The notes under the pieces are model-generated. The model was not told where the DNA came from. It saw nothing but the letters and a program-made list of their open reading frames with translations, and did not search any database. From NCBI GenBank assembly GCA_002070735.1, contig MWDX01000003.1, positions 1-60,407 on the forward strand: a stretch of 60,407 bases of DNA, in the 5' to 3' direction. Below are positions 8,547-51,001 of the stretch, piece by piece. This DNA is from Parcubacteria group bacterium ADurb.Bin115. GTDB taxonomy: Bacteria; Patescibacteriota; Patescibacteriia; Patescibacteriales; UBA12465. Within the stretch, counting starts at the first letter, position 1. The number at the start of each line of letters is the position of its first letter. Both the position numbers and the translations under genes were made by a program.

Positions 8547-11084
8547 TTAAACCTTGCGCAAATCAGACGCCAGAGCCTCTGTCCGTCTAATAATATCAGC
8601 CTCTACAATTGTTCGGTCTTGACCAAATTTCAAACTGCTCAAAGACCGAATTTTTGCGGAAATACCCTCGCGCTTTACTCCTAGAAGCGGCCAGATTGTT
8701 TTCATAGAAAAGGGCCGGCTAGGACTATTGTCTACCAATAATTTAATATATGCCGTGCCCTTGTCAATATTAATCAAATCATAGACATTAAAAACCGGGG
8801 CAAATTCTTTTACCAAAAACTCCGCATCTTCGGTCCCTATTTTGAAGGCAATTATCGTGCCGACATTACCAAACACGGCATCCTTAATTTCTGTATTATT
8901 ATTTTTAGTCAACTGACCTATATATTGGTGAGCGATAATCAAATTCAAAGCATATTTACGGGCTTCCGAAAGTATCTGACAAATAGAATTAGTGGTAAAA
9001 TTCTGAAACTCATCGATATATAAATAAAAATCTTTACGCGCCTCGGCCGGCATGTCGGTACGAGATAAAGCCGCCATCAAAATTTTACCGACAACAATCA
9101 TCCCTAAAAGATAAGCATTCATTTCCCCAACAACCCCTTTGGGTAAATCAATCAACAAAATCTTTTGCCTATCCATCAAATCGCGAAAATTAAAAGAGCT
9201 CTTCTGCTGACCAATAATCGGTCGCATCATATCGTTGGAAATAAAAGCAGTCAACTTGGAGGTGATATAGGGGACGATATTGGCCAAAGCAGCGTCGCCC
9301 CCCGCCTTTTCCGCTTCCTTTTTCCAAAAATCAATCACCGTGCGGTTATGACAACGAGATAATTTTAAACGGCGGAAATTTTCATCCGATAAAACTTTTG
9401 GTACTTCCATTAAAGTAGAACCGCTCTCCGGGTCATCCATGATTAATAAGAGAGCGTTACGCATATATTGCTCAAACATTGGTCCGCCTGTTTGTTTTAA
9501 ATCATACAATTTATCAAAAATTCCAATCATTTCATTAATCACAAAGCTTTTCTGCTCAGGGTAACGCGGATCATATTCCAATAAATTTAAAGCCAAGGGT
9601 CTCTCTAGGTTGGCTGGAGAAAAAATTACAACATCCTCTACTCTTTCCGGAGGCATGCGCTGTAAAATATCTTCAATTAAATCGCCATGAGGATCAAGGA
9701 CACAAACGCCCTCTCCGTTCTGAATATCCTGGATCGCCATATTGGCCAATAAAACCGATTTACCGACACCGGATTTACCAATGATGTAAGTATGCCGGCG
9801 TCGGTCTTGACGCTTTATCCTGATGTCTTTTTTGACGCCTCGATAAACATTCTGACCTAAAAGTAAGCCCTCACTGGGCAAATCGGCCGGCGCCGGTGCA
9901 TTTTTAGCGGTCAGCCATAAAATATTAGGCGTTTCCATGTGCTTTAAAGGTAGGTGAAAAACACTGGTTAATTCTTCAGTATTTAAGAGAAAAGAATAGT
10001 CTTCGCGGAAACGACGATAGATAAAATCCTTAATTTGCCTTTCTTGTCCGCTTTTAAGGGAGCGAGAAAAATGATTGCCATAACTATAATTATTATATTC
10101 AGTAAAAACACTGGCAACGTTTTCCAAATAGACATTAGCCCGTTCTTTACTTGAGGAAGAAACCACTATCCTAAGATTAACATCAAGTCCGGCGCGCAAA
10201 TTTTTTTCTTCAATAGACTTTACCGTCTCCTCTTCTAAGGCGGAAAGGCGTTTAGACACGGATTCATTCAAATTTTTTGTCTTATTTTTAATACCAGTAC
10301 CAGCTCCTAAAATATCTCTAAAGAATGAAAAAACTTTATATACTCCCCCACCGCTAATACCTTCACGGACAGAATTTTTTTCATGTATCCTTTTAACTAT
10401 ACTCCTAAGCTTTCGATGCCAGGCGCCGTTGGCGCTGCGCACGACATATTGGACGGCAACACTTTCATCCTTATCTAACTTAGACATGATGTTTATTAAA
10501 GAATTAAGCGGATCAACCTCTATTTTCTGATAAGTGCGTAGAGGCAGAGCGAAGTGCTTCTTGGTTTTTAAGGAAGCCGCCACCACCTGGCCGCTCATGC
10601 TAAAAATATTATAATCTTCAATTTCTTCAATTACCGCTTCCGGATAATGAGCCGTAATCTGCTGTTCCAAATACCGCGACAAAGCCCGTGGGGCCACCGC
10701 ATAAAAAGCAATTTTATGATGATTGGCCACGATTTCAAAGGCAAAATGGTCATTACGGCCAAGTAGCCAAGCAGTAAAGCCTCGCTGGGCTTTTAAGCCG
10801 CCGATACTGGCAAAAATTGTTTCTCCTCTGGCAATTTCCTCACGCATCTGCTGTAAGGAAAAATCCTTATTCTCATCTTGAGGCTTCTCTTTGGGCAACC
10901 TGATTAAAAAAACCTGATGATTAAAATAAGCGTTATCCGTGGCAAAACGGCGCACAAAAAAACGGAAAAGAAAAACAAGTCCTACAAGCAAGGCAATGAC
11001 CACCAATAAAAATAAAACAGAAAAAACAACAGCGCCACTATCGCTCTTAGAAAATATAATTAAATTATCTAAAAATGAAGCCAT
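8547..11084 (-). CDS. membrane-anchored VirD4/TraG/HerA-superfamily P-loop ATPase with a ~400-aa N-terminal domain of unknown function
   Basis: It has an N-terminal TM helix. Walker A is GKSGVGKS (nt 9756-9779) and Walker B-like is LYIDEFQNF. The C-terminal half resembles type IV coupling-protein or DUF87-type ATPases. The N-terminal half is paralogous to ORF 45688..47127. Confidence 0.8.
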   Translation of the reverse strand: MASFLDNLIIFSKSDSGAVVFSVLFLLVVIALLVGLVFLFRFFVRRFATDNAYFNHQVFLIRLPKEKPQDENKDFSLQQMREEIARGETIFASIGGLKAQRGFTAWLLGRNDHFAFEIVANHHKIAFYAVAPRALSRYLEQQITAHYPEAVIEEIEDYNIFSMSGQVVAASLKTKKHFALPLRTYQKIEVDPLNSLINIMSKLDKDESVAVQYVVRSANGAWHRKLRSIVKRIHEKNSVREGISGGGVYKVFSFFRDILGAGTGIKNKTKNLNESVSKRLSALEEETVKSIEEKNLRAGLDVNLRIVVSSSSKERANVYLENVASVFTEYNNYSYGNHFSRSLKSGQERQIKDFIYRRFREDYSFLLNTEELTSVFHLPLKHMETPNILWLTAKNAPAPADLPSEGLLLGQNVYRGVKKDIRIKRQDRRRHTYIIGKSGVGKSVLLANMAIQDIQNGEGVCVLDPHGDLIEDILQRMPPERVEDVVIFSPANLERPLALNLLEYDPRYPEQKSFVINEMIGIFDKLYDLKQTGGPMFEQYMRNALLLIMDDPESGSTLMEVPKVLSDENFRRLKLSRCHNRTVIDFWKKEAEKAGGDAALANIVPYITSKLTAFISNDMMRPIIGQQKSSFNFRDLMDRQKILLIDLPKGVVGEMNAYLLGMIVVGKILMAALSRTDMPAEARKDFYLYIDEFQNFTTNSICQILSEARKYALNLIIAHQYIGQLTKNNNTEIKDAVFGNVGTIIAFKIGTEDAEFLVKEFAPVFNVYDLINIDKGTAYIKLLVDNSPSRPFSMKTIWPLLGVKREGISAKIRSLSSLKFGQDRTIVEADIIRRTEALASDLRKV

Positions 11085-38633: not shown

Positions 38634-38749
38634 AAATCGAGGAAAAAATAAAAATAGCGAGCCAAGCCACCCTCTTTATTTATATAAATATAATTTGTTT
38701 AGCAACAGCATTATAAAACAAAAAAAGAAAAAATAAAAGATGACGATTA

Positions 38750-39904
38750 TTACAAGCGACGCAGTTCTCTTAACAGGCGATTATAAAATTCCAAATTATT
38801 AAGACTAGCTAATTTTTGTCCTAAAGGTTCATCCAAACGGAAAAGATGATGCAAAAAAGCCTTACTGTAGCGGCGCAGTTCCGGCAGATCGCTGTCAGCA
38901 TTAATCGGGGAAAAATCTTGAGCAAAGGCGGCATTGTTGATATTCTTTGTCCGATAGAAATCAGGATAAGACACGATTGGTCCCGGCTTCGCCTTTCTTT
39001 TTGTAAACCCCCGGAATCCAGGCTTGAAAAAAAATAATTTGCCGTGCCTACCTTCACGAGTAGGAATAACACAATCAAACATATCCCAGCCCATCAGATA
39101 GCAACGATAAATATCCTCGGGCATGCCAACGCCGAGAGCGAAGCGCAAAGAATCTTTAGGTAAAAATGAAGCAGTTTTAAAAATAGTTTCGGCTAAAAAA
39201 TTACCATCTTTATCAACCGGTCTGGCGCCAAAACCATAGCCGTCAAAACCAATAGCAAGCAACTGACGTGCGCTTTCTCGGCGTAAATCTTCATAATCTC
39301 CGCCCTGAACCACGGCAAACAGCAAAGGTCTATTATCTTCAGTTATTTTCCGCCTTTTTATCTGTTTAAGGTATTCCTGCTTACAGCGCGCCGCCCAAGC
39401 CAAACTACGCTTAACAGCTTTTTCTAAATCGGCCCTCGGCCAATCATTGGGCGGACAGTCGTCCAGACAAACCATCATATCAACACCTAAATCAAATTGA
39501 ATTTGGATAGACTTTTCCGGACTAAATTCGTGCCGAGAACCGTCGATAGGCGATTTGAAAATAACTTTATCGTCATTAATTTTTCCCAGATTTTTTCCTT
39601 GATGAATCAAAGAAAAAACCTGAAAACCGCCGGAATCAGATAAAAGCGGCCCTTGCCAATCCATAAAATTATGGACGCCGCCGGCGCGCTTAATTATCTT
39701 TTGTCCGGGCTGAAGATAGAGGTGAAAAGTGTTGACCACCATCACCTCGGTACCCGCCCTCTTAGCGTCCGCACTGGTATTAGCTTTCACAAAGGCTCTA
39801 GTAGCGTCCGGCATAAAAAAAGGCGTTGATAAAGAACCATGAATATTAGTTACACGCCCGCGACGAAGACCGTCTTTAAATAGCTTTAATTTAAATCCGC
39901 TCAT
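38750..39904 (-). CDS. tgt: tRNA-guanine transglycosylase
   Basis: It carries TPFFMP, LSDSGGFQV, GLAVGE-like GVGMPE and CVIPTR. Confidence 0.9.
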   Translation of the reverse strand: MSGFKLKLFKDGLRRGRVTNIHGSLSTPFFMPDATRAFVKANTSADAKRAGTEVMVVNTFHLYLQPGQKIIKRAGGVHNFMDWQGPLLSDSGGFQVFSLIHQGKNLGKINDDKVIFKSPIDGSRHEFSPEKSIQIQFDLGVDMMVCLDDCPPNDWPRADLEKAVKRSLAWAARCKQEYLKQIKRRKITEDNRPLLFAVVQGGDYEDLRRESARQLLAIGFDGYGFGARPVDKDGNFLAETIFKTASFLPKDSLRFALGVGMPEDIYRCYLMGWDMFDCVIPTREGRHGKLFFFKPGFRGFTKRKAKPGPIVSYPDFYRTKNINNAAFAQDFSPINADSDLPELRRYSKAFLHHLFRLDEPLGQKLASLNNLEFYNRLLRELRRL

Positions 39905-39906
39905 AA

Positions 39907-41910
39907 TTATTCTACTCGTCCATTATTAGAAAAACCGGCAATTTCATCGTCTTCAAGCTTACTGGTCTTAGCTTTGGTCTTATAACTTATCCTGCCGCCA
40001 GTCAAAGAATCAAGCGCTGTGACCGTGCTACCGGGAGAAATTACTAAAATTTTATCGCGATCACTATCTTTAGGGATAAAACTGATATTAAACTCGGCAT
40101 CAGCGCGATACACAGAAATAGGCAAAAAACCCAAACGCCAAGTAACTTGATTACTCTCGGCATCATAGGTGATACTACCGACATTAGTATTTTCCCCGCC
40201 TGACCATTCCAGCCCTTGAGGTAAATCTAAAACTACTTGGACATCGCTCAAATCATGTAAATTATTTTTTAGAGTCCAAAAAACTCTCACACTAGTCTTT
40301 TCGCCGACTCGAGGCGGCAATGGACCAGAACCCACCGGGATATTATCTTCGTTAAAATACAAAATCTTTTCACTCAATGACAAATCACTATTTATTTGCC
40401 CCTTGATGGTATTACTCCGATTATCTTCAGAAGCGCCCTCTTGGTTATTATTTAAACCATATTGAGCATAACTCGTGATACTAGTGTCAACGCCTAAATC
40501 GGAAACGGAAAAATTACGTAATTTTAAAGAAAAATCTATTTTACCGCTGGCGCCAGGAGTCAATTCAGACAATGATGGCAACTGCTCTTTAGTCCAGACA
40601 ATCGCGTCGCCGGCAACACTGCCGCCCAGAGGGTCGCGCAAAGAAGACCAATCAACAAAATCACCTTTAATAACAGCCATTAAAGCGACGTCATCAAGAG
40701 TAGCCTCACCATTATTAGCATACTCTAATTGATAAGATAAGGTGTCACCAAAATTTAAAGTCTGATCTGTCTTAGAACCGTTTAAAGTAAGGCTTAAATT
40801 TAAATCGCTCTTAATAGCCTCAAAAGATATAGTCTTTTCCCATAAAGACATCTCCCGGCCGTCGGCCTCTCTTTTTATCAAGCGCAAACTTAAATCTTCT
40901 TTATCCTGATTCTTGGTCTTTAATGTAAAATCGATAGCTATCGTTATCTTCTCCTCAGAATCTGCCGGCAAACCGGACAAAAACCAAGAGTTCTCACCGG
41001 TATTCTGAATTTTAAAAACATCAGCAGCCGCGCCCTCTGACTGATTATTTTCGGACACGAGTTCGCCCTTCTCTGAAGAGACTTGATTGACGATAAAATT
41101 ATCTGAGCCGGAAATTTTTAGATAAAGATCGGATAGCTTATTATTTTTAAAGGCGTTCAAAAACAACTTCATTTCATTGTTTTGACCAATAATAGCTGTA
41201 TTAAGATAATCGGCGCTGACGATAAAGCCCAAACCGGAGACTACCGTATTCGCGCTGGCCTCCTTCTTAAACTCACTGGAAAAATTGGCCGGCACATAAG
41301 ACAAGCGGGCGCTAACCACATTAGCGGAATCAACTGGCGAGTTTAAATAACCGCTAATGACAACTAGTCCGCTACCGCCAATAGCGATATCGCCAAAACT
41401 CCAGGTATTAATGCCGGAAGGAGCGGGCACGCTTTCAGTAATTATAAAATTTGACGGCAAAAGCACCTCTAACTTAGCGTTACTTAGGGCTAAACCGCTA
41501 TCATTACTGTAGGTAATATTATAAGATATTGGTTCTCCGGCCAAAGCTTTCTCTGGGGCTTGTACTGTTAAAATAATGGCACTAGTACCGGCGGGACGCT
41601 GAAAATAGTAATAATATCCCGCATAGAGTCCGCAAGCTAAAAGAGTGAGAATAAAAACTTGTTTAAATAAAACTAACAAACGCAAACGGTGTCTTTTCTG
41701 GACTCGGCTAACATCAACTAGACGTCCCTGCTTGTCGTGATAAATAGCAGAAAGATTATTTTCCACCTCTTCAGCGGCTGCTTCTTTTTTTACCGCCTCT
41801 TCAAAGCGGGAAACTTCTTCAACGGCCGGTAAAGGTCTTTCTAAAAAAGTCTTTAAACCAGAATCCTTATCTGCGGAAGATGTTTTTTTCTTTTTTTTCA
41901 AGACTGTCAT
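39907..41910 (-). CDS. large membrane-anchored surface protein with beta-rich repeat (DUF11-like) domains
   Basis: It has one TM helix (FILTLLACGLYAGYYYYF) after a charged N-terminus, and repeated segments such as Y.I.Y.N.G...L.N. Its C-terminal module is shared with ORF 2704..3780. Confidence 0.7.
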   Translation of the reverse strand: MTVLKKKKKTSSADKDSGLKTFLERPLPAVEEVSRFEEAVKKEAAAEEVENNLSAIYHDKQGRLVDVSRVQKRHRLRLLVLFKQVFILTLLACGLYAGYYYYFQRPAGTSAIILTVQAPEKALAGEPISYNITYSNDSGLALSNAKLEVLLPSNFIITESVPAPSGINTWSFGDIAIGGSGLVVISGYLNSPVDSANVVSARLSYVPANFSSEFKKEASANTVVSGLGFIVSADYLNTAIIGQNNEMKLFLNAFKNNKLSDLYLKISGSDNFIVNQVSSEKGELVSENNQSEGAAADVFKIQNTGENSWFLSGLPADSEEKITIAIDFTLKTKNQDKEDLSLRLIKREADGREMSLWEKTISFEAIKSDLNLSLTLNGSKTDQTLNFGDTLSYQLEYANNGEATLDDVALMAVIKGDFVDWSSLRDPLGGSVAGDAIVWTKEQLPSLSELTPGASGKIDFSLKLRNFSVSDLGVDTSITSYAQYGLNNNQEGASEDNRSNTIKGQINSDLSLSEKILYFNEDNIPVGSGPLPPRVGEKTSVRVFWTLKNNLHDLSDVQVVLDLPQGLEWSGGENTNVGSITYDAESNQVTWRLGFLPISVYRADAEFNISFIPKDSDRDKILVISPGSTVTALDSLTGGRISYKTKAKTSKLEDDEIAGFSNNGRVE

Positions 41911-41999
41911 GTAATTAAGAACGATGCGACGATAGTCGCAACTACCGAAGCCCGTTAAAAAATTATAATTCTTAAAAATCGCTAAAAATAAACTTGATA

Positions 42000-44489
42000 T
42001 TATTTCTCCAATAAAACGGCCCGCATTACGTCTCTATCTAGGGATAGGTTGCCATTCCAAGAAGATTGATTAGGATAGTTCCAGATCTGCCGCCAGCCGG
42101 ATGGAGCCGTAATTTCCAAGTCAACACTAGTAGCCTTAGCGCCTGGCTGTTTTTGCAACAATAAAGAGAAGGGGAAACGTTCGCCGGGAGCTTTATCCAA
42201 TAAAGAGCCAAGTCGGGTGAGCCAATCGCCGCCACTGACGTCGGCCTCCGCCTCCAAGCGAAAAGGCAAACGATAGCGTAATTTTATCTCCACTGTTTCC
42301 CCCGGATCAACCATTACCCAATTAGCAAAAACGGTTTTTCCATTTTCTTTATAAATCTTAGTGCCGCTTACTAAATCGGTCAAAGCGAGTTCTTCGGTTT
42401 CAGCGATTAAAGGAAATTTTTCCCAACCCTCCTCCGGCTTTTCAAAATAAGAAGCGTCGGGAGCGCGAAAACCGCGGGCTTCTAATAATTGGCTACCAGC
42501 GGGTACATATACCCTTAACCAATCAACATTCCGGACACCGCTCAAAATTTCATTTTTCAAGCCAGTATGAGTACGAGTAATGGTAAGGGTGTCGATTAAG
42601 CTGCGGTCACTAAGAATCTGAACGGAATGTTTAACCTCATCAAGCATCTTGCGATCACTTTTCTGGCCGGCAATATTGGTGTGGGCAATAAGAAGATAAT
42701 CATGCTGACTCGGCAACATCGCTCCGTCAAAACCATAACGCGCGGCTTTTGCCTGTAACAAAGGATCGGAAAAATACAGCATGATATTTTTAGAACTGAG
42801 ATTCTTTTCCAAGGCGGTTATAAGTAAAGGAAGATTTTCAAAAGTTAATATTCTGGGTAGGCGGTCTATAATCTCCGCCATTAAATCGCCAATAATTTTC
42901 TTGGGTTGATTCTTGGGGCTATCAGGTAAATTAGCCACTTCTTCTGGATGGGTTTTTATTAAATTTTCTTTTTCCACTGTCGCTTGAATCAAATCCCAAA
43001 AATTATCAGCATCAATAGTTAGACCATATTCGGCTTGCATATCAATCGGTCCGGTAATTTTTAGTAAATCAGATAAAACATCGGGAGTGAAACTAATCAC
43101 CCCATCAACGGTTGGACCGCCGCTTTTTTCATAAAACCACATCAAGGAACGAGCGCTGGTGGGCCAATCCGGCCACCAATTGGCATCCCAAAAATACCAG
43201 CGCGGACTCACTAACCATAAAGGTTGGGGGGATTGGATAAAATTTTTCATACCCGCCTCAGTGTCGTAGGATCCGCCAGCTGGCACTTCCAAACGACGAA
43301 TCCGGCCCTCACGGATATCGACCAGTGCATAACTACCCAAAAATCCACCAGACCCCCTCATTTCCGCATTATTTTGAAACACCAATAAATAGCGCTTATC
43401 TCGACTCACTCCTAAAAAATCTTTAATTTCTTGAGCTGAGCCCAGTAAAGAGCGCAGTGAAGAAACCGCGATTTCGGCTTGATCGCGAAAATCGATAAAT
43501 TGACTCCGATATTCCTCTGGTAAAGTATCGACATCAATATTATCAAGTTGACGTTGTAGCTCCTCGGCATCAATTAAAGCCTGCTGTCCAGGTTCAATAA
43601 AAGAATCAATCAAGCTTCCCCAATTCTTATCAGCGCTTGTTTGTAATAAGATATTTCCCGCTTCACTTAAATGCTCACCCATCGCAGCGGCCGCCTGACC
43701 GGCCGCTAAAAATTTATTTCCAGAAGAAGCCAATTTGATTTTAGGATCACCAGAAAAAGAAGCGAACGACAACAACCAGTCGTCAATCCTACTTAATTCC
43801 GCCTGAGCCGAGATAAAATCACTCTCCGCTTTAGCAAAATTAGAGGCGGCAGCGCTAAAATCTAATTGCGCCGCCCCGTCGGAAGCGGCCGCTAAATTAT
43901 TTAAAGCGGATAAAGAACGGTCAATCACACCAGCCTGTAAACTTTTGATGTCCAAAATTTTTAGATAAGACAAAATTTTAAAAGGCAAAATGATAATTAT
44001 TAAAACGGACACAAAAACAAAGAGAGACCGGTACCAAGAAACAAGATGCTCCGCTTGGGATAAGCGGGCGTTTGTTTTTGATTTCTCTTTTTTGAGGCGA
44101 CGCCAACGCACACCAGCGGCGGCGGCAAACAAGCGACGCTCTCTCTTATTAAAACGAGAACCGCGGAGATAATGTGAGCGCGAAATACGGAAATGACGGC
44201 GCTTCTTTGCCTGAAAATTAAAAAAATGACGTAGAGAAAAAGAAGAATTTTTACTGGGCGAGACTAAGTTCGAATTAGATTTGAAAAAAGATAGAGTAGC
44301 CGCATACGGCGGTCGACGAAAAGAAAATATTCTTTTAAATTTTTGCCAATTAATAAAAGCAATATTAACCGGCTTTTGGCTCTCTGAAAGTTTTTTCTGA
44401 CCAGAGGGGCGCAAATCCACGATAAAAGAGTCGACTGCCGACAAATTACGCTTTATATTAGATTTTTTTATATTTTCCCGATTCATCAA
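42000..44489 (-). CDS. DUF4012-like membrane-anchored protein
   Basis: It has a basic N-terminus, one TM helix, a helical region, then LLVFQNNAEMRGSGGFLGSYALVD, which I recognise as characteristic of DUF4012. It is 8 nt downstream of the GT4 gene. Confidence 0.75.
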   Translation of the reverse strand: MMNRENIKKSNIKRNLSAVDSFIVDLRPSGQKKLSESQKPVNIAFINWQKFKRIFSFRRPPYAATLSFFKSNSNLVSPSKNSSFSLRHFFNFQAKKRRHFRISRSHYLRGSRFNKRERRLFAAAAGVRWRRLKKEKSKTNARLSQAEHLVSWYRSLFVFVSVLIIIILPFKILSYLKILDIKSLQAGVIDRSLSALNNLAAASDGAAQLDFSAAASNFAKAESDFISAQAELSRIDDWLLSFASFSGDPKIKLASSGNKFLAAGQAAAAMGEHLSEAGNILLQTSADKNWGSLIDSFIEPGQQALIDAEELQRQLDNIDVDTLPEEYRSQFIDFRDQAEIAVSSLRSLLGSAQEIKDFLGVSRDKRYLLVFQNNAEMRGSGGFLGSYALVDIREGRIRRLEVPAGGSYDTEAGMKNFIQSPQPLWLVSPRWYFWDANWWPDWPTSARSLMWFYEKSGGPTVDGVISFTPDVLSDLLKITGPIDMQAEYGLTIDADNFWDLIQATVEKENLIKTHPEEVANLPDSPKNQPKKIIGDLMAEIIDRLPRILTFENLPLLITALEKNLSSKNIMLYFSDPLLQAKAARYGFDGAMLPSQHDYLLIAHTNIAGQKSDRKMLDEVKHSVQILSDRSLIDTLTITRTHTGLKNEILSGVRNVDWLRVYVPAGSQLLEARGFRAPDASYFEKPEEGWEKFPLIAETEELALTDLVSGTKIYKENGKTVFANWVMVDPGETVEIKLRYRLPFRLEAEADVSGGDWLTRLGSLLDKAPGERFPFSLLLQKQPGAKATSVDLEITAPSGWRQIWNYPNQSSWNGNLSLDRDVMRAVLLEK

Positions 44490-44497
44490 TTTTAAAA

Positions 44498-45688
44498 TTA
44501 TTCTACTAATATCTTACGATATATTTCTAAAGTTTGGCGCGCACATTTCTGCCAGCTAAAAACATTAACTCTTTTTAAACCGCGCGCTATCAATTGTTGG
44601 CGGTAATCTTCATTTTCAAATAAAAATTCTAATTTAGATAACATATCCGCTTGGTTATAGGGATCAAAATAAAGAGCGGCATCACCAATAACTTCCGGCA
44701 AACTAGCCTGATTAGAAGAAACAACCGGACAAGAATGACTCATTGCTTCTAAAGGCGGCAAACCAAAACCTTCATATAAAGAAGGAAAAACATAAAATAA
44801 AGCCCGGCGATACAACACGGCTAAATCGGCATCAGGAACATATCCCGGAAAAATAACTTTATTATTATCACCACCTTCGCTTTGCCAAAGCGATAGGGCG
44901 GACGCCTTTTCCTTAACACGATGATAAAAATAATCGTCTTTACCCACCATTACCAACTTGAGATGATGATGGCGGGAAAGCAAATTATTAAAGACAGTCA
45001 GCAAAACTTCTAAATTTTTATGAGGATAAGCGTTGCCCACATATAACAAAAAGGGTTCGCTAATCCGATAACGTTGTAAAACTTGTTTCTCCTCTATTTC
45101 GCCAATAATTTCTTTTTTGTCTAAGTCCGCTACCCCTTCGTAAGTAACAAATAATTTTTTAGGATTAGCCTTAAACTTTTTGATAATATCTCTACGGGTA
45201 AATTCAGAAACGGTAATTATGGCTCGGGCTCGCCTTATAGCCGTTCTAATGACCAAGCGATAGGCGGCTTGCTTAAACCAATAAAAAGCTGCTGGGAGCA
45301 TTGAGGCGCGGCGACTGGAGAAACGGGTTAGTATTAAATCATGAATAGTGACGACAAAGGGCACCGGGGTCAATATGGGGACATTGAAATGGGGAAAGTG
45401 GACCAAATCTAACTTTTCTTTTTTTAAAATCAAAGGAAAAAATAATTGCTCCCGCCATGAATACCAACGCCAAGGAACTTCTATTTTGCGAACATTGGGA
45501 TGGCTAGACTTAAAATCTTTAAAATTATCCGGACTCAAAAAAATAACATATTCAAATTCACTGCTAGTGACGGTCATCGATACGATATTATCAACCACTT
45601 CTTGAACATAACGCCCCAAGCCCTTACCTAGAGGACCATAAAAACGAGCATCAATACCGATTCTTTTTTTTGTTTTCTTATTAAACAT
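44498..45688 (-). CDS. GT4-family (GT-B fold) glycosyltransferase
   Basis: It has the EX7E-type motif region FPSLYEGFGLPPLEAM. Its start overlaps the upstream stop (TAATG). Confidence 0.9.
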   Translation of the reverse strand: MFNKKTKKRIGIDARFYGPLGKGLGRYVQEVVDNIVSMTVTSSEFEYVIFLSPDNFKDFKSSHPNVRKIEVPWRWYSWREQLFFPLILKKEKLDLVHFPHFNVPILTPVPFVVTIHDLILTRFSSRRASMLPAAFYWFKQAAYRLVIRTAIRRARAIITVSEFTRRDIIKKFKANPKKLFVTYEGVADLDKKEIIGEIEEKQVLQRYRISEPFLLYVGNAYPHKNLEVLLTVFNNLLSRHHHLKLVMVGKDDYFYHRVKEKASALSLWQSEGGDNNKVIFPGYVPDADLAVLYRRALFYVFPSLYEGFGLPPLEAMSHSCPVVSSNQASLPEVIGDAALYFDPYNQADMLSKLEFLFENEDYRQQLIARGLKRVNVFSWQKCARQTLEIYRKILVE

Positions 45689-47127
45689 TAAACAAATGGT
45701 AAATTATCAGGCACATTCTGTTTTTCTTCTTCCTTTATATGATTTTTACTCTCGCTCTGTGATTGACTAGTCGCGCTATGCAAAATTTCCACACTGAATG
45801 GTTCCAATAAGGGAGCGGCCATATCATTAACTATCGGCAAAGTAGAAGGGGCATCCGCTTTTCTGCCAGGAGCTTTCTGAATTAACGGCGCCTTGACATT
45901 AGCTTCTATCGGGAAATGCCATAGAGTTGCCAATTCCTCAATATTATATAAACCAGGATTGCGCCCCGCCGTATCTTCTCTGGCGATATAATTAGCCATA
46001 ATCGCATTCTTTTTGCGTAGCAGGCGCTTATCTTTATTAAAATAAGCAGTTTTAGTCATTGTCAATTTAACATCCGGCTTTAGATTGTTTAAATCAAGAG
46101 AAGCAAACTGTTTCATATAGCCAATTACACCGTTTACCACCTTATTCTTGTTCATTAAATCTTTACGAGCCACATAAACTACGCGAATTTTTGCCTCGAA
46201 AGATAGTTTTGCGGCTTTTAAATGGATGGCCTCTATCTGCCTCTTCTGCTTAGGTGTAAGTTCTTGCATTGATAAGCCCTTATCTTCGGTGGACTTGCTT
46301 TCAATATCGCCCCAGATACTATAAATAGCTTCGCTGATATTGCCCAGCCATTCCACAAATTTAGAAGCGGCACTTGATTGTTTTTTCTTCTTGCCTAAAA
46401 TTTTATCAACCACCTTATCCGTTTCTGCCACCCAATCAAAACCTATGGGAATAATCACCAGTTGCATCCATAACTGCTCGCCTTCCCGCAAAGAACTGCA
46501 CAAATCCATTAAAGATGCCATCGGATCTTTAAACTGCGTTTCCGATTCGCCAAAATTATGTTCAAATTCCTGATAAAGCTTAATGGGAAAGGCCCAATTG
46601 TTAGACTGTATGAATTCTGCCCCCCAAACATCATAATCCTCATCCGGAAAATGATGAGGAACAGTATCAACATAATCATCAACCTCGGAAATCTCGGCAT
46701 CAGGATATTGGGAATAGACAGACGTTTCAATTAAATCACGAAATTCAACGGGCGTCCTAATTAAAAATTGAGTATAACCCTCAATGCTAACAATTTCGTA
46801 ACTGAAGGAGACCTGAAATTTACCCTCAAACCATTTTTCAAAAAAATTAGTAGAACCATGAGCGCCGGCTAAATAGCTAAACATGTTCTCGGCGGCTTTA
46901 GGCGATTGTTCATTACCCTTCGGAATATCGATTGCCAGAAGGATAAATTGCAAATTCTTGGCCGCCCACTGAGATCTGATTTTTTGAAGATAAATTAAAG
47001 AGATGCCATATAACAAAACAGCGGCAATAACCATCCAGCCGATATTAATAAAAAATACCCACAGCATCTGATCAGCTGGCAAAGCGAAAAAGGCGTCCAA
47101 TCTGGAAGTATTAATCGTAATTTCCAT
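45688..47127 (-). CDS. membrane protein paralogous to the N-terminal domain of the 845-aa ATPase (no NTPase domain)
   Basis: It has one TM helix near the N-terminus. Collinear similarity to ORF 8547..11084 includes QYPDAEISEVDDY vs HYPEAVIEEIEDY and YNIEELATLWHFP vs LNTEELTSVFHLP. Confidence 0.7.
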   Translation of the reverse strand: MEITINTSRLDAFFALPADQMLWVFFINIGWMVIAAVLLYGISLIYLQKIRSQWAAKNLQFILLAIDIPKGNEQSPKAAENMFSYLAGAHGSTNFFEKWFEGKFQVSFSYEIVSIEGYTQFLIRTPVEFRDLIETSVYSQYPDAEISEVDDYVDTVPHHFPDEDYDVWGAEFIQSNNWAFPIKLYQEFEHNFGESETQFKDPMASLMDLCSSLREGEQLWMQLVIIPIGFDWVAETDKVVDKILGKKKKQSSAASKFVEWLGNISEAIYSIWGDIESKSTEDKGLSMQELTPKQKRQIEAIHLKAAKLSFEAKIRVVYVARKDLMNKNKVVNGVIGYMKQFASLDLNNLKPDVKLTMTKTAYFNKDKRLLRKKNAIMANYIAREDTAGRNPGLYNIEELATLWHFPIEANVKAPLIQKAPGRKADAPSTLPIVNDMAAPLLEPFSVEILHSATSQSQSESKNHIKEEEKQNVPDNLPFV

Positions 47128-47196
47128 AACAAAAGGCTAAACAACGACGTCATCTAAGGCGCCGGTAATTATATCAATATTTTAGCATAAATTTAA

Positions 47197-47230
47197 GAAA
47201 ACAAAAACCGCTGCAGCGAGCGCAACGGTT
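47197..47230 (-). terminator. rho-independent terminator after the sigma-region-4 protein gene
   Basis: On the minus strand, AACCG, loop, CGGTT is followed by TTTGTTTTCTT. Confidence 0.5.
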
Positions 47231-47268
47231 ATGAAATATTCTACAATTAATTCGCAATAATAAAGTCT

Positions 47269-48312
47269 TTAAGCATTTTGCCATTCTCTTAAACCATACA
47301 TTCCTCGACCGGTTAAGACATAGCGTTCATCAAGAATTAATTCATTATGAACAGTCGCTGGATTGGCATTCTTATGGTCAAATTTTATCTCATTAATTTT
47401 AGAAGCAATTTCTGTAAAATGAAGTGGCTTACCAGCATTCTTTAAGACTAAATAAATCTTATCATTAATGGTTTTCGGTTTAATTTCCTGCCAATCAGCC
47501 TTACCCCAATAACCAAATTTATTGCGCTCCAAATCTTTCAGCGCCTGCATTAAGGAGTATAAAGTCTTATTACTGTTGATAATCTCGGCCTTATCAGGAA
47601 AAATCTGACTTTTAAAAATCGGGGTGATGTCAGCGCTATTATTTGCCTCCAGCTTATCCTGATACTGGGAATAGGAATCCAGGCTCTTAAGCAATGACAG
47701 AACGCCTTCAGTATCAAACGTCTTATTCAAAGATTCAAGTTTTGATAATAAATCCTTAGATAATTTTTCAAAATGCTCTAAAGACTCTTCCTTAAGCTTA
47801 ACCGACGCATTAAAATTACTGGAGTCGGGCATTAAATCAAAATCATCATCAAGAAGTTTGGATAAGATAAAATTAAAACGATTTTTGTAAACCTGCCTAT
47901 TCTTTTCATATTCAGCGCTATTAATGTCGACATCATTGTTCATTTCTAAACTCATCACGGTTAAAATATCAAGTAAAAAATCGCGTCTCAATAAACCACC
48001 ATGCTCCTTTAATAACTCCTCAACTACACTCTTTAAAGTCACTAGATAATTACTTAAATTATCCAAACGTTTGATTTTTTTGATGCTTGCGTTTTCAATC
48101 TGGCGAACCCTTTCCCGAGTCAGTTTATGAAGCTGACCAATCTTCTCCAATGTTTCATTTTTATCACCATTTAAACCAAAACGCCTAGTCAAAATATCAC
48201 GCTCTCTGTCCATTAAGTCGGAGAACAAACTATTGACTATTTGAATCGCATTCAATTTAGATAATTCCTCACTACGCTTATCGCGCACAATGCTTTCTAA
48301 AAAATTATCCAT
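47269..48312 (-). CDS. DNA-binding protein with sigma-70 region 4 HTH (N-terminal) and HARE-HTH-like domain (C-terminal)
   Basis: ETLEKIGQLHKLTRERVRQIENASIKKIK matches the sigma region 4.2 signature. The C-terminus (IYLVLKNAGKPLHFTEIA...DERYVLTGRGMYGLREW) resembles the RNAP delta/HARE-HTH fold. Regions 2 and 3 are absent. Confidence 0.75.
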   Translation of the reverse strand: MDNFLESIVRDKRSEELSKLNAIQIVNSLFSDLMDRERDILTRRFGLNGDKNETLEKIGQLHKLTRERVRQIENASIKKIKRLDNLSNYLVTLKSVVEELLKEHGGLLRRDFLLDILTVMSLEMNNDVDINSAEYEKNRQVYKNRFNFILSKLLDDDFDLMPDSSNFNASVKLKEESLEHFEKLSKDLLSKLESLNKTFDTEGVLSLLKSLDSYSQYQDKLEANNSADITPIFKSQIFPDKAEIINSNKTLYSLMQALKDLERNKFGYWGKADWQEIKPKTINDKIYLVLKNAGKPLHFTEIASKINEIKFDHKNANPATVHNELILDERYVLTGRGMYGLREWQNA

Positions 48313-48389
48313 ATAAACAAAAATATAGACTCGCTATACTATTTTAATCTTAATAATTTTATAAAATTAATCTATCATAATATTTTATA

Positions 48390-49358
48390 TTAGTCAATGC
48401 TTCGATTTATACTGCGATTTACACCCCAAAACTTAAAATAGGTTTTTAAGAGAAATGGGGCGAATATTAAAGAAAATAACCCCATAAAGATAACCTTTAC
48501 AACAATTAAAAAACGGGAAAAATAACTTTCAAAATGAAAATATTTAACAAAAATTAGATTCTGATTAGCAAAAGACCAGGAACGAGTCAGCCGGCTCCTT
48601 TTTTGCCAATGCCGCCAAGTCTGCCATAAATTTTCCTGACCAGCACTACTCCGATCATGATAAGCGATGGCGTCTGGCACCAACACTGTCTTCTGACCAG
48701 CTCGAAACAAGCGATAAGCAAGGTCGCAATCCTCCTTATACATAAAAAAACGCTCATCAAAATATTTACCGTCCACTGTCACTTTTTCCAAAGAACTGAT
48801 GCGAAAAAGAGCCGCTGCTCCCGATGGACCAATAATTTCAGTTCTATCATATTGCCCCTTATCTTCTTTCCCTTGCCCGAGATCATAAAAACGCAAACCC
48901 GGCGCCAAGCCTATACCGCAAGAATCAATGATCTTAGTTAAACGTTTACCCCTAAAATCCCAACGATATATTTTAGGACAAACTGCGGCTAAATCTGTTC
49001 GCTTCGCCAAAACAGATAATAAGCGCGCAATCATATTCTCGGTCAGCAACATGTCGGGATTAATCATTAAAAAATAATCTGCCCCCACCCCTTTAGCAGC
49101 GATAATTAAACGATTATAAGCGGCGGCAAAACCTAAATTTTTATCAAAAGCCAATAGTTTAATAGGAAAAGAAGCCTTTAAATTATGACGAAATAATAAT
49201 TCTTGATTGACAAAAGGCGCGCGGTCGCTATTATCGCCAGCAAAAACAAAAATTTCAGCGTCAAGACGTATTAAAGCCGCCTCTAAACTCTTTAAAAACT
49301 CCGGCAAGTAAGGAGCGGAACTGTCATTGTAACATAAAAAGGCAACGGCTAATTTCAT
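48390..49358 (-). CDS. GT2-family glycosyltransferase (rhamnosyltransferase-like)
   Basis: It has a GT-A N-domain with DNSD and a DxD-like EDCD motif, plus a C-terminal hydrophobic tail. Confidence 0.85.
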   Translation of the reverse strand: MKLAVAFLCYNDSSAPYLPEFLKSLEAALIRLDAEIFVFAGDNSDRAPFVNQELLFRHNLKASFPIKLLAFDKNLGFAAAYNRLIIAAKGVGADYFLMINPDMLLTENMIARLLSVLAKRTDLAAVCPKIYRWDFRGKRLTKIIDSCGIGLAPGLRFYDLGQGKEDKGQYDRTEIIGPSGAAALFRISSLEKVTVDGKYFDERFFMYKEDCDLAYRLFRAGQKTVLVPDAIAYHDRSSAGQENLWQTWRHWQKRSRLTRSWSFANQNLIFVKYFHFESYFSRFLIVVKVIFMGLFSLIFAPFLLKTYFKFWGVNRSINRSID

Positions 49359-49382
49359 ATAAATACAAGGTGACTGGAAAAT

Positions 49383-50108
49383 TTAAATGGACATCTTAGC
49401 GTCCAACTTTTCCTTGGCAAATAATTGCGCCTTGAGTAAGCTGTCAAAAGTACCGGCGTCCAACCATTCTCCCTCCACCATTGCCACCTCCAGCTCGCCT
49501 TTGGCTAGGTACCAATTATTTAAATCTGTAATCTCTAATTCGCCGCGAGCACTTGGTTTTAAATTTTTAGCCACCTCGACCACACGATGGTCATAAACAT
49601 AAAGACCGGTAACCGCGTAATTACTTAAGTAATTAGTCGGTTTTTCAATAATTTTTTCCGCCTTCATTTTGTCGTCGAATTTAACGACGCCAAAACGCTC
49701 CGGGTCAGGTACATATTTAGCAAATACTTTAGCGCCACTCTTAAAATTAGAAATATCATCGGCAAAATTATCTTCAAAAATATTATCGCCCAAAATCATC
49801 ACCACGTTCTCCCCTTGAATAAATTTTTCACCAATAATAAAAGCTTGAGCTAATCCTTCGGGCTTATCTTGAATTTCATAGGTAAATTTTACACCAAATT
49901 CCCGGCCACTACCTAGTAAATTAAGATAATCGCCCGCTCTTTCCGGAGAAACAATAATAAGAATTTCTTTAATACCGGCTTTAATTAAAGTGTCCAAAGG
50001 ATAATAAATCATTGGCCGATTATAAATCGGTAACAACTGCTTACTGGTAATTTTGGTTAATGGGCGTAAGCGGGTGCCACTGCCTCCCGATAAAATAATT
50101 CCACGCAT
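49383..50108 (-). CDS. rfbA: sugar-1-phosphate nucleotidyltransferase (glucose-1-phosphate thymidylyltransferase-like, short form)
   Basis: It carries MRGIILSGGSGTRLRPLT and lies adjacent to rfbD. Confidence 0.85.
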   Translation of the reverse strand: MRGIILSGGSGTRLRPLTKITSKQLLPIYNRPMIYYPLDTLIKAGIKEILIIVSPERAGDYLNLLGSGREFGVKFTYEIQDKPEGLAQAFIIGEKFIQGENVVMILGDNIFEDNFADDISNFKSGAKVFAKYVPDPERFGVVKFDDKMKAEKIIEKPTNYLSNYAVTGLYVYDHRVVEVAKNLKPSARGELEITDLNNWYLAKGELEVAMVEGEWLDAGTFDSLLKAQLFAKEKLDAKMSI

Positions 50109-50125
50109 AAATATATTTGACTTAA

Positions 50126-51001
50126 TTATTTCTTCAAACCTAAATAAAATAAATATTCGTCTAAAGCTTCAGTCCAAGGGCGCAAAGACGGACGGCGATG
50201 ATTAGCTAAAGCTGAATATTGAGGGCGAACAGCCGGACGAGGCCAGTCTGCCGACGCCAATGCCTGCAAATTAACGGTAGCGCCGATAGCCTGAAAAAGA
50301 TAATTAGCGCCATCATACCAAGTCGCCTCGCCTGAATTACACAAGTGATATATTCCCCGCGCTGGTCGATCTGTTACTAAACTCTTGGTGGCAATCGCTA
50401 AATCGGGAGTATAGGTAAAACAACTCCTCTCCCCATCAATCGCTTTGATTGTTTCCTTTTCCAAGGATAAAGTAATCATGATATCAAAAAAACTGGGCTT
50501 TACTTGCGGACTTTCTCCTTTTGGTCCGAATAATTTAGAAGTGCGAATTAAATAATAATCTAAACCGTTTAGCGCCCTTCTGGCGATTTCTTGTTCGCCA
50601 GCAAATTTGGTACGTCCATAAACATTTAAGGGTGAAGGCTTATCTGTTTCCTGATAAGGACCGCTTAAGCGTCCGTCTCCACCAAAAACATAATCGGTTG
50701 AATAATGGATGAGTAGAGTTTGACTACTCAAGCAATAATCAGACAAAACCCCTGGAAGTTCAGTATTTAAACGCCTAGCCAGCATCGCCTCAGCTTCGTT
50801 CTCTTCGCATTTATCAACGGCATTATAGGCGGCGGCATTAATAATAACGCTTGGAGATAGAGTATGTAAACGCTTGGATAATTCTTCAAAATTTAAAAAA
50901 TCAAAATCAAGCCTGTCCCAAGCTTGACAATCTTGGTTGGAAAAAACCTTTTTTAGCTGACCGCCGAGATTGCCGGCGGCGCCAAGAATAAGAATAGACA
51001 T
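50126..51001 (-). CDS. rfbD: dTDP-4-dehydrorhamnose reductase
   Basis: It has the Rossmann motif ILILGAAGNLG and YGRTK (YxxxK), with RmlD-like length. Confidence 0.88.
   Translation of the reverse strand: MSILILGAAGNLGGQLKKVFSNQDCQAWDRLDFDFLNFEELSKRLHTLSPSVIINAAAYNAVDKCEENEAEAMLARRLNTELPGVLSDYCLSSQTLLIHYSTDYVFGGDGRLSGPYQETDKPSPLNVYGRTKFAGEQEIARRALNGLDYYLIRTSKLFGPKGESPQVKPSFFDIMITLSLEKETIKAIDGERSCFTYTPDLAIATKSLVTDRPARGIYHLCNSGEATWYDGANYLFQAIGATVNLQALASADWPRPAVRPQYSALANHRRPSLRPWTEALDEYLFYLGLKK

Follow-up and report, generated by a model that had tools for sequence, protein, structure and literature searches.

What holds a tightly packed row of five genes together in a patescibacterial genome, and do the products of these genes serve a single purpose? 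The question is raised by a gene block in the window, that is, the whole 60,407-nucleotide stretch of contig MWDX01000003.1 of Parcubacteria group bacterium ADurb.Bin115. The preliminary description had presented this block as a coupled operon of envelope proteins around a GT4-family glycosyltransferase, and had taken the packing as an argument for co-expression and for a shared role, plausibly in the assembly or display of a glycosylated surface layer or polymer. The block itself was confirmed: it is composed of five co-directional ORFs on the minus strand, which encode a DUF8128 protein (479 aa), the GT4 enzyme (396 aa), a DUF4012 protein (829 aa), a DUF11-type surface protein (667 aa) and the tRNA-guanine transglycosylase Tgt, with junction gaps in this order of -1, 8 (or 11), 89 and 2 nt. 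The GT4 start overlaps the DUF8128 stop by one base, and the second gap takes two values because the DUF4012 gene starts with TTG while an ATG lies one codon on, at 44486, from which an 828-aa product is called in public data (P0121).

The five genes are predicted to form, probably, one transcription unit, since a terminator-like hairpin and a promoter-like site are located just upstream, and a scan of positions 38000-49500 revealed no strong terminator inside the gene block. The hairpin (47206..47230, minus strand) is of the intrinsic-terminator type, with a GC-rich 10-bp stem that includes 5 GC pairs and is followed by a T-run (TTTGTTTTCT); it is the sole strong terminator-like site within the scanned interval, ends the upstream sigma-like gene and delimits the unit on its 5' side. 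The promoter-like site (47168..47196, minus strand) consists of TTAAAT at 47196-47191, a 17-nt spacer and an extended -10 element, TGATATAAT, at 47176-47168, and is positioned about 40 nt 5' of the DUF8128 ATG at 47127. It was read straight from the letters; the automatic scan missed it since the -35 element has no more than 3 of 6 matching positions. Every gene of the block is covered by contigs from RNA-type libraries, some of which span the DUF8128/GT4, GT4/DUF4012 and DUF4012/667-aa junctions, the spanning ones coming only from low-depth 'METAGENOMIC RNA-Seq' libraries in which DNA carry-over is possible; true metatranscriptomes gave scattered fragments over the block, a sparse RNA signal. 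The short gaps, which are retained in about 70 related species genomes, also speak for a single unit. The step from packing to a shared role fails, because tight gaps are genome-wide and tgt is coupled equally tightly: the median gap among the 44 adjacent same-strand gene pairs of the window is 20.5 nt, 18 of these pairs are separated by 10 nt or less, and nearly all window genes share one strand.

How far is this arrangement conserved? A close relative of the DUF8128 protein is encoded in 401 species-level genomes. The order DUF8128-GT4-DUF4012-DUF11-like-Tgt is present in at least 68 species genomes of a Falkowbacteria-like clade (Patescibacteria) and, preceded by SigL, is kept in every sufficiently long locus of the 80 that were fetched. 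The median gaps in the clade are 9 nt (DUF8128-GT4), 2 nt (GT4-DUF4012), 10 nt (DUF4012-DUF11-like) and 5 nt (DUF11-like-Tgt), and the first of them does not exceed 30 nt in 67 of 79 clade loci; the SigL-DUF8128 gap is 74-215 nt in every clade locus (about 70 related species genomes). Synteny with relatives extends over approximately 20 kb around the block, at 62-77% identity. On the far side of Tgt, and upstream of RmlD, the gene content varies across clade loci. In one subclade a UppP/BacA gene is inserted between DUF8128 and GT4.

The GT4 gene (44498..45688, minus strand) was assigned by Pfam, NCBIfam and its EX7E motif, and its product is, judged from sequence, a cytoplasmic enzyme of the GT-B fold. 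Both GT-B halves score above the cut-off: Glycos_transf_1 (PF00534; E-value 1.4e-32, 113.1 bits against 26.4) at residues 210-372 and Glyco_transf_4 (PF13439; 2.7e-14, 54 bits against 28.5) at residues 69-186, and the motif (E306-x7-E314, EGFGLPPLE) is kept in a 78-member clade alignment. Among proteins of solved structure, MshA, GlgM and PimA-type GT4 enzymes come closest in sequence; none of 29 NCBIfam matches reaches the cut-off of a characterised GT4 subfamily, the best being the MSMEG_0565 family (103.6 against 259.85 bits).

The DUF4012 protein (42000..44489, minus strand), characterised by Pfam, an AlphaFold2 (AF2) model and a cross-phylum alignment, matches PF13196 at residues 364-504 (1.8e-30, 106.8 bits against a cut-off of 28), as do all 39 aligned homologues. 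A basic tail of some 154 aa lies in the cytoplasm; it is followed by a transmembrane helix at residues 155-173 and then by roughly 650 aa of ectodomain, in which the model shows a helical bundle, beta-sandwich domains and the DUF4012 core of alpha/beta type (pLDDT 79, pTM 0.73). E376, R378, G381, G382, G385, W425, P440, D462 and G463 are invariant across phyla. Sequence comparison with the PDB gave no match, and Foldseek returned only partial matches with TM of at most 0.37, which assigned no enzymatic fold; one of these (TMt 0.37) is 3pe5, which we take to be an LCP-family protein, and no Pfam LCP match at E<=1 was found among the 39 members. DUF4012 is listed as a family enriched in CPR and shared with Gram-positives (PMC6744442).

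The 667-aa protein (39907..41910, minus strand), placed by Pfam, family search and topology, matches DUF11 (PF01345) over the whole protein (5e-8, 33.7 bits against 24.6), and 17 of 18 members of its family do so as well, the best at 2.9e-21. It is anchored N-terminally, with a conserved 77-aa cytoplasmic tail, a transmembrane helix at residues 78-96 and an ectodomain of about 570 aa whose sequence suggests tandem Ig-like beta-sandwich domains of the DUF11/CARDB type. Several Ig-like beta-sandwich family matches are shared with repeat surface proteins such as the 'conserved repeat domain' wall proteins of archaea and Bacillus, which differ from the 667-aa protein in that the latter has an N-terminal helix and tail instead of a signal peptide combined with an LPXTG or S-layer-homology anchor. 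No LPXTG-like motif was found in the last 60 residues of the 667-, 829- and 479-aa proteins; a sortase-anchored surface protein was rejected on this ground and on that of anchoring through the N-terminal helix.

The first gene of the unit (45688..47127, minus strand) was described as encoding a third large single-pass envelope protein with no assigned function. One hydrophobic segment is indeed present in each of the three proteins, but 'envelope' is wrong for this one. Its family is now named DUF8128 (PF26449), by the precomputed Pfam assignment of the identical protein P0001 and of nearly all listed homologues (the model is not in the local Pfam copy, hence no local match), and by its topology it is not a surface protein: a transmembrane helix at about residues 21-39 leaves a short N-terminus outside and a body of about 430 aa in the cytoplasm. 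The body is alpha/beta; behind it come a disordered tail and, at the C-terminus, a P-x-N-L-P-F motif that is conserved. The mean column identity in an alignment of the protein is 65%. Elsewhere in the window (8547..11084, minus strand) domain search and BLASTP revealed an 845-aa fusion of a DUF8128-like N-terminal domain with a P-loop ATPase of the VirD4/TrwB type. The DUF8128 protein matches residues 60-403 of this fusion (BLASTP, 1e-14) and, on that alignment, is an ATPase-less paralogue of its N-terminal half; the P-loop (Walker A/B) domain is found by Pfam and NCBIfam in the 845-aa paralogue and not in the 479-aa protein. In three other loci (L084, L089 and L090) a stand-alone DUF8128 gene has a separate gene for a TrwB-type ATPase immediately downstream, and in L090 the 596-aa ATPase matches residues 414-833 of the fusion (47% identity, 9e-129).

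Among VirB4/VirD4 ATPases, including the orphan T4CPs of Patescibacteria, the likeness of DUF8128 accordingly lies in its forming the N-terminal half of the VirD4-type fusion. A survey of such proteins (PMC12102498) reports thousands of T4CP homologues encoded far from virB4, possibly exapted, and a term search of it gave no description of the DUF8128 domain. A likeness in fold may exist as well: the 14 top Foldseek matches are all TrwK/VirB4 (E 3e-5 to 8e-3, probability 0.93-1.0), at TM of about 0.3 and from a model of modest quality (AF2, pLDDT 61). On the side of difference, hhalign gave no match to R388 TrwK (probability 0.3), the sequence has no match in the PDB, and the protein was rejected as a VirB4 ATPase since it is without the C-terminal P-loop domain. 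The block was likewise rejected as a type IV secretion locus: neither VirB3/B6/B8-type components nor a relaxase were found near it by Pfam and NCBIfam, the neighbouring genes matching GT2, RmlA, RmlD, MurF, PBP, Tgt, PK and Eno. The suggested check for co-occurrence with the VirD4-like ATPase did reveal a link, by homology and by neighbourhood in other lineages, but the ATPase gene is 35 kb away in the window. In other Patescibacteria DUF8128 adjoins a VirD4-type ATPase, a sigma-region-4 protein or SecDF. The gene upstream of it in the window (47269..48312, minus strand; 347 aa; Pfam, NCBIfam) encodes such a protein, with Sigma70-region-4 and HARE-HTH domains, which stands upstream of DUF8128 in all 78 clade loci and also in L086 and L090, and is therefore a recurrent neighbour across several Patescibacteria lineages.

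Which of the genes belong together in more distant relatives? For an answer, 120 metagenomic loci with a DUF4012 gene were sorted by similarity. A DUF11-like gene comes after DUF4012 in 10 of 10 same-clade loci, and at mid-distance GT4 is adjacent in 16 of 21 loci, the DUF11-like gene in 12 of 19 and DUF8128 in 2 of 15. Thus the five-gene order holds within the clade, but only GT4, DUF4012 and the DUF11-like gene stay together beyond it. The supposed partnership of DUF8128 with GT4 and DUF4012 is lost outside the Falkowbacteria-like clade; neither gene was detected beside DUF8128 in 7 distant loci. Tgt (38750..39904, minus strand; Pfam TGT, 6.9e-101) is downstream in 8 of 8 same-clade, 3 of 13 mid-distance and 0 of 17 distant DUF4012 loci, and is a housekeeping passenger, functionally unrelated though tightly coupled, whose linkage is confined to the clade.

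The other mid-distance neighbours of DUF4012 are Bac_transf priming transferases, Wzz, Wzy_C, MurJ and PMT_2. Of these, Bac_transf, Wzz, Wzy_C and the MurJ/MOP flippase genes are a point of likeness to Wzx/Wzy-dependent pathways, as is UppP within the operon of one subclade; the difference is that DUF4012 is not a recognised component of such pathways. The block was rejected as a Wzx/Wzy-dependent polysaccharide locus, since Pfam and NCBIfam revealed none of the hallmark genes (for a priming transferase, a flippase, a Wzy polymerase or a Wzz co-polymerase) in 38750-51001; the glycan pathway is to that extent incomplete in the window's operon. Further likeness is provided by exopolysaccharide and capsule loci of Gram-positives. 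On plasmids of Rhodococcus and Streptomyces, DUF4012 comes directly after a priming sugar transferase, among GT4 genes, and the B. longum 105-A eps locus (BL105A_0405-0407) has the same arrangement of a single-pass DUF4012 protein (PMC5412050). The Gram-positive proteins share with that of the window the core motif R-Y-L-x-x-Q-N-x-A-E-x-R-G-x-G-G; they are of 570-610 aa and encoded right after the priming phosphoglycosyl transferase, whereas the window unit is without such a transferase and its 829-aa protein has the long basic tail and extra C-terminal beta-sandwich domains, with a DUF11-like gene coming next. The Rhodococcus DUF4012 gene is flanked by rfbA, rfbB and a 3,5-epimerase-family gene, and these dTDP-rhamnose genes recall RmlA and RmlD, two genes of the same pathway that with a GT2 glycosyltransferase lie upstream of the unit (48390..51001, minus strand; Pfam, NCBIfam). 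The three genes are kept there in most clade loci and could supply sugar precursors to a glycan module.

The reading favoured here, which we place just on the probable side, is that of a composite unit: a surface-glycan module of GT4, DUF4012 and the DUF11-like protein joined to DUF8128 and tgt, genes of differing histories within one conserved transcription unit. The trio is read as a module for a polyprenyl-phosphate-linked cell-surface glycan, and as the functional core, because of the glycan-pathway neighbours in distant relatives and the position of DUF4012 after priming transferases in Actinobacteria. The soluble GT4 would add sugar(s) to a lipid-linked intermediate at the cytoplasmic face, and the alpha/beta core of DUF4012, with its E, R and D residues, may act on or scaffold the flipped glycan outside the membrane, in export, polymerisation control or ligation. 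The DUF11-type protein would be a surface scaffold or acceptor. DUF8128 would be a membrane-tethered cytoplasmic protein with a VirD4-type ATPase, the sigma-region-4/HARE-HTH protein and SecDF as ancestral partners, which may have become the first gene of the operon only in the Falkowbacteria-like clade, and tgt would be carried along as a passenger. The surface-layer or polymer role suggested in the preliminary description agrees with the surroundings of GT4 and DUF4012 in other lineages, while DUF8128 and tgt belong elsewhere.

One may ask whether, as the preliminary description has it, every gene but tgt contributes to one dedicated machine. DUF8128 might then serve, for instance, as a platform in the membrane that brings in GT4 or powers the export of the glycan or of the DUF11-like protein. 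Such a part in export is conceivable because relatives of DUF8128 are tied to translocation-type ATPases and SecDF, and the overlap with GT4, the retention of the arrangement despite variable outer flanks and the insertion of UppP inside rather than outside the unit all speak for it; the tight coupling, seen in 67 of 79 loci, might reflect a genuine functional connection, one that is undervalued when DUF8128 is treated as a lineage-specific neighbour. Yet none of the seven out-of-clade DUF8128 loci adjoins GT4 or DUF4012, the trio occurs without DUF8128 in 13 of 15 mid-distance loci, and unrelated tgt is just as tightly coupled where tight gaps are the genome norm, which leaves the single machine unlikely. 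A bolder version takes DUF8128 for what is left of a T4S-type ATPase machine, or for an adaptor of one, that was recruited with the trio into a new envelope apparatus in the Falkowbacteria-like clade. It would be a platform whose NLPF tail docks the 845-aa ATPase or GT4, and this platform would link the making of the glycan to the export or display of a surface layer that is glycosylated, with DUF4012 as an unrecognised extracytoplasmic enzyme of monoderm glycopolymer pathways; this is speculative and quite improbable.

Protein glycosylation, with a GT4-built lipid-linked oligosaccharide moved extracellularly onto the DUF11-like protein to give an S-layer-like glycoprotein and with DUF4012 as transferase or helper, would account for the frequent DUF11-like gene after DUF4012. 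PMT_2 and Wzy_C genes directly upstream of the trio in three loci (L191, L210 and L186) agree with it: PMT_2 is a protein O-mannosyltransferase-type GT-C, and the Wzy_C family also holds O-oligosaccharyltransferases. Of the ten N-x-S/T sites in the 667-aa protein, nine lie in its ectodomain, but sequon counts are not evidence of glycosylation; moreover, the window contains no oligosaccharyltransferase, DUF4012 of Actinobacteria sits in polysaccharide-type loci without a DUF11-like gene, and none was detected in the 34 most distant DUF4012 loci, where divergence may hide it. This possibility is held to be more unlikely still than a dedicated machine. Least probable is the absence of any shared function, with five unrelated genes held together by a low rearrangement rate and the extreme compaction of Patescibacteria genomes. 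The short gaps, the common strand and the 20-kb synteny would be expected from it, but GT4-DUF4012 adjacency persists in mid-distance lineages with completely different flanks and is echoed in Actinobacteria amid glycan-pathway genes, and the present locus sample already points to an over-represented GT4-DUF4012(-DUF11-like) adjacency across Patescibacteria.

Patescibacteria make up a large share of bacterial diversity, are ultra-small and live attached to other cells; to our knowledge, their envelopes are almost uncharacterised. On the composite reading, the GT4/DUF4012/DUF11-like core is a concrete candidate for the building of a surface glycan or glycoprotein layer in one large clade. Since DUF4012 is present in polysaccharide loci of the genetically tractable Bifidobacterium, Rhodococcus and Streptomyces, the function of this CPR-enriched family is testable in culturable hosts. 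DUF8128, in turn, appears from sequence to make up the N-terminal domain in the thousands of 'orphan' VirD4-type ATPases that Patescibacteria encode, or sometimes to be encoded as a separate adjoining gene, and its assignment gives a handle on a widespread, unexplained ATPase system.

The block belongs to a Patescibacteria (CPR) chromosome segment in which almost all genes lie on the minus strand, apart from a short plus-strand island at about 21822-23639 that includes ribosomal protein L1; ARAGORN found no tRNA genes in the whole 60-kb window (1-60407). The closest public proteins carry the labels Patescibacteria or Falkowbacteria, and the same DNA is also present in anaerobic-digester, wastewater and activated-sludge metagenomes. 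Five open reading frames, all on the minus strand, were found where the preliminary description had placed them: the gene of a 479-aa protein of the family PF26449/DUF8128 (45688-47127), a GT4 glycosyltransferase gene (396 aa; 44498-45688), which overlaps the upstream gene by one base, a DUF4012 gene (829 aa; 42000-44489), the gene of a 667-aa DUF11-like protein (39907-41910) and tgt (38750-39904), which follows 2 nt after the latter. The TTG that starts the DUF4012 gene is immediately followed by an ATG (44486), in agreement with the 828-aa public gene call P0121. The Pfam matches are GT4, DUF4012, DUF11 (in the 667-aa protein) and TGT.

It had been argued that the packing of these genes implies a shared role, which packing alone does not bear out. 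The median gap between adjacent same-strand genes of the window is 20.5 nt (n=44) and 18 of the 44 pairs are separated by 10 nt or less. Unrelated housekeeping genes are packed as tightly, and tgt, a tRNA-modification gene, is itself tightly coupled, so that packing is not meaningful by itself. The unit has a clear 5′ boundary, composed of a strong terminator-like hairpin (47230-47206, minus strand; 10-bp stem and T-run), the sole strong one in 38000-49500, and then, 3′ of the hairpin, a promoter-like site (47196-47168, minus strand; TTAAAT, 17-nt spacer, TGATATAAT). No strong terminator was found inside the unit in that scan. The internal promoter- and terminator-like sites of a consensus scan did not exceed shuffled expectation by more than about 2 SD (39 vs. 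27±6; 20 vs. 13±4) and were set aside, unused as evidence. Since Rfam models had no match in 37000-49500 (E≤0.1), there is no sign of a riboswitch or leader in the 89-nt and 141-nt gaps.

Co-expression of the block was also followed in RNA data. All its genes are covered by contigs of wastewater libraries labelled 'METAGENOMIC RNA-Seq', and some of these contigs bridge the DUF8128/GT4, GT4/DUF4012 and DUF4012/667-aa junctions, DNA carry-over being possible. True metatranscriptomes contain scattered fragments only. A piece of the DUF8128 gene of about 350 nt (~46195-46554) recurs, each time as a contig, in four metatranscriptome runs that are independent of one another (X29, X31, X32, and X35), and coverage outside it is very sparse in metatranscriptomes. 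Thus all genes of the block occur in RNA libraries, with the possibility of DNA carry-over, and these data do not map the operon.

The arrangement of the block was compared across related genomes. When GTDB species were scanned with one genome each, 401 genomes proved to encode a protein closely related to that of 479 aa, and the best 80 of these 401 loci (56-89% identical) were fetched. Every fetched locus of this Falkowbacteria-like clade that reaches far enough has the order SigL-DUF8128-GT4-DUF4012-DUF11-like-Tgt, as the claim of a cooperating operon called for, and the loci differ beyond Tgt and upstream of RmlD. The gaps are short within the unit, with medians of 9 nt from DUF8128 to GT4 (≤30 nt in 67/79 loci), 2 nt from GT4 to DUF4012 (69/73), 10 nt from DUF4012 to the DUF11-like gene (54/69) and 5 nt from the latter to Tgt (55/68); the gap between SigL and DUF8128 has a median of 114 nt (range 74-215) and is ≤30 nt in none of 78 loci. 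The fixed order and short gaps across the clade make the operon architecture a conserved feature of it. SigL denotes the 347-aa protein encoded upstream (47269-48312, minus strand), whose only domains are sigma-70 region 4 (residues 31-81) and, at the C-terminus, HARE-HTH. Such a gene stands directly 5′ of DUF8128 in the window, in 78/78 clade loci and in the distant loci L086 and L090, and its product may be a dedicated regulator or an RNA-polymerase-associated factor. One subclade (L050, L052, L055, L057, L070, and L072) has one more gene, placed between DUF8128 and GT4, the identity of which was verified in L052 (L052:11638-12435) as a 265-aa undecaprenyl-diphosphatase (BacA/UppP, 1.7e-54); its presence inside the operon points to polyprenyl-phosphate chemistry.

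At greater distance these links are not equally durable. With a degenerate DNA pattern that encodes the core motif Q-N-N-A-E-x-R-x-x-G-G-F, 120 metagenomic loci were retrieved, which were annotated with HMMs built from the proteins of the clade and grouped by DUF4012 bit score as a proxy of distance. At ≥1000 bits (same clade) all links are complete: GT4 is adjacent in 6/6 loci, DUF8128 lies upstream in 5/5, and the DUF11-like gene and Tgt lie downstream in 10/10 and 8/8, respectively. At 500-999 bits the corresponding counts are 16/21, 2/15, 12/19, and 3/13. At 150-499 bits GT4 is adjacent in 2/20 loci (within 1 kb in 7/20) and DUF8128, the DUF11-like gene and Tgt are found in 0/14, 0/20, and 0/10; below 150 bits GT4 is adjacent in 1/17 (within 1 kb in 3/17), the other three being found in 0/10, 0/14, and 0/7. 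From these graded counts it follows that GT4-DUF4012(-DUF11-like) is an evolutionarily stable core, and DUF8128 and tgt are clade-specific additions. The open reading frames that flank GT4/DUF4012 in more distant loci encode Bac_transf priming transferases (L193, L211), a Wzz-like protein (L119), PMT_2-type GT-C proteins (L191, L210), MurJ (L102) and Wzy_C (L186). Directly 5′ of GT4-DUF4012 in three mid-distance loci (L191:4971-6722, L112:4387-6123, and L210:864-2726) are genes of polytopic proteins of 580-620 aa, all with the motif 'SPDETANY' in their first loop; those of L191 and L210 match PMT_2 (GT-C), and that of L112 has no Pfam match. The core thus resides in polyprenyl-phosphate glycan neighbourhoods.

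The DUF8128 family comprises 2067 representatives of 50%-identity clusters (E≤1e-3), and no mention of the family was found in the papers searched. It is very conserved in the clade (mean column identity 65%), and its C-terminal P-x-N-L-P-F tail (45688-45720, minus strand), which follows a variable disordered linker and is retained in distant members only ~30-40% identical, looks like a short docking motif. The protein has one TM helix (residues 21-39), and the positive charges after it place the body in the cytoplasm. The suspected link to a VirD4-like ATPase proved to be one of homology: by BLASTP, residues 44-431 align with residues 60-403 of the 845-aa protein of the window (22% identity, E=1e-14), the C-terminal half of which is a TrwB/VirD4-type P-loop ATPase. 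The gene of this fusion (8547-11084, minus strand) adjoins dnaX (6934-8526), with no other T4SS gene nearby, and the same fusion (854 aa) adjoins dnaX in the Magasanikbacteria locus L085. Seven loci with distant stand-alone DUF8128 were examined, from lineages including Uhrbacteria, Magasanikbacteria and a Portnoybacteria-like genome. A separate TrwB-type ATPase is the next gene in three of them (L084, L089, and L090), that of L090 being 47% identical to residues 414-833 of the 845-aa protein (9e-129), so that split and fused forms of one two-part protein both exist. SecD/SecF recur nearby (L084-L087), and neither GT4 nor DUF4012 stands beside DUF8128 in any of the seven. In a 2025 survey, 2,918 genomes of Patescibacteria yielded 5,713 VirD4-type T4CP homologues; just 148 of these lie near virB4, and the authors propose possible exaptation (PMC12102498). 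Judging from its Pfam matches, the 845-aa protein probably belongs to this set, and DUF8128 appears to be an uncharacterised N-terminal module of the surveyed system. The AF2 model of DUF8128 is of modest quality (pLDDT 61, pTM 0.58); its 14 best Foldseek matches in the PDB are all R388 TrwK/VirB4 (E 3e-5 to 8e-3, probability 0.93-1.0, TM ~0.3). A PDB sequence search with the family profile gave nothing meaningful, and hhalign of a diverse profile against R388 TrwK gave a probability of 0.3, which lends VirB4 homology no sequence-level support. With the low TM and this negative comparison, DUF8128 can be termed 'VirB4-N-domain-like' only tentatively.

The 829-aa DUF4012 protein consists of a very basic 154-aa cytoplasmic tail with a conserved FVVDLR motif (44420-44489, minus strand), a single TM helix and a ~650-aa ectodomain. 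In the AF2 model, which spans residues 151-829 (pLDDT 79, pTM 0.73), the alpha/beta core that corresponds to DUF4012 in Pfam is accompanied by a helical bundle of ~180 aa, a further helical segment and beta-sandwich domains at the C-terminus. No solved relative was found by PDB profile search, weak Pfam matches of family members (E≤1) were not consistent, and Foldseek gave nothing among viral structures and only partial matches in the PDB (TM ≤0.37), namely beta-sandwich domains of M1 aminopeptidases, an oligosaccharyltransferase-complex subunit and the uncharacterised 3pe5. The last may be an LCP-family protein; no support for this was found in the literature searched, and a motif scan of all fetched loci for LCP genes gave nothing. 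Residues invariant in an alignment with Rhodococcus, Streptomyces and Lachnospira homologues (E376, R378, G381, G382, G385, W425, P440, D462, and G463) could mark an extracytoplasmic site of catalysis or ligand binding. Plasmids of Rhodococcus and Streptomyces carry DUF4012 immediately after a priming 'sugar transferase', in the midst of GT4 genes, and in Rhodococcus an ABC transporter, rfbA, rfbB and a gene of the 3,5-epimerase family are part of the locus as well. The company of DUF4012 and glycosyltransferases is already known from published Gram-positive EPS loci, as in B. longum 105-A, where the DUF4012 gene BL105A_0406 lies between the priming transferase and Wzz (PMC5412050), and DUF4012 was listed among CPR-enriched families common to Gram-positives (Méheust et al.; PMC6744442).

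The GT4 protein, a soluble GT-B enzyme, carries an EX7E motif (E306/E314). The solved proteins nearest to it in sequence are MshA, GlgM and PimA-type GT4 enzymes, and it stays below every NCBIfam equivalog cut-off. DUF11 matches 17 of 18 members of the 667-aa family (best 2.9e-21), as do other Ig-like beta-sandwich families, and a PDB search with the family profile gave nothing meaningful. The 667-aa protein has a conserved 77-aa cytoplasmic tail and one TM helix; LPXTG, as the sortase signal looked for, is absent. Its tail motif (FxERPxP…IYxDxxGxxVDV; 41700-41910, minus strand) differs from that of DUF4012, and nothing convincing common to both tails was found; their conservation suggests recognition by cytoplasmic partners. 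Elsewhere in the window (3791-5641, minus strand) a 616-aa protein with a GHL15 putative glycosyl-hydrolase domain and FG-GAP repeats is another candidate envelope or surface protein.

Best supported, and in our judgement somewhat better than an even bet, is a three-part reading of the block: a surface-glycan trio, a captured DUF8128 and a passenger tgt. We infer the biochemical roles of all block proteins, building on what was observed of their gene structure, domain identity and topology and of the neighbourhoods in other genomes. Inside the cell GT4 would act on a lipid-linked intermediate, outside it DUF4012 would handle the glycan, and the DUF11-like protein would serve as scaffold or acceptor, with RmlA, RmlD and GT2, encoded upstream, as possible sugar suppliers. 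DUF8128, cytoplasmic and tethered to the membrane, would be a paralogue of the N-domain of the VirD4-type ATPase of Patescibacteria and would have been captured at the operon head in the clade; tgt would be carried along. A true four-gene machine that includes DUF8128, favoured by the invariant order within the clade and opposed by the distant loci where DUF8128 stands apart from GT4 and DUF4012, seems unlikely. Still less likely is a protein-glycosylation system with the DUF11-like protein as its target. Pure genomic inertia, favoured by the general tightness of the window and opposed by the persistence of the GT4-DUF4012 pair outside the clade, is the least probable.

With respect to the literature searched, three aspects are new: the conservation of a GT4-DUF4012-DUF11-like trio in Patescibacteria, the operon being a composite, and DUF8128 as a detachable N-terminal module of orphan VirD4-type ATPases.
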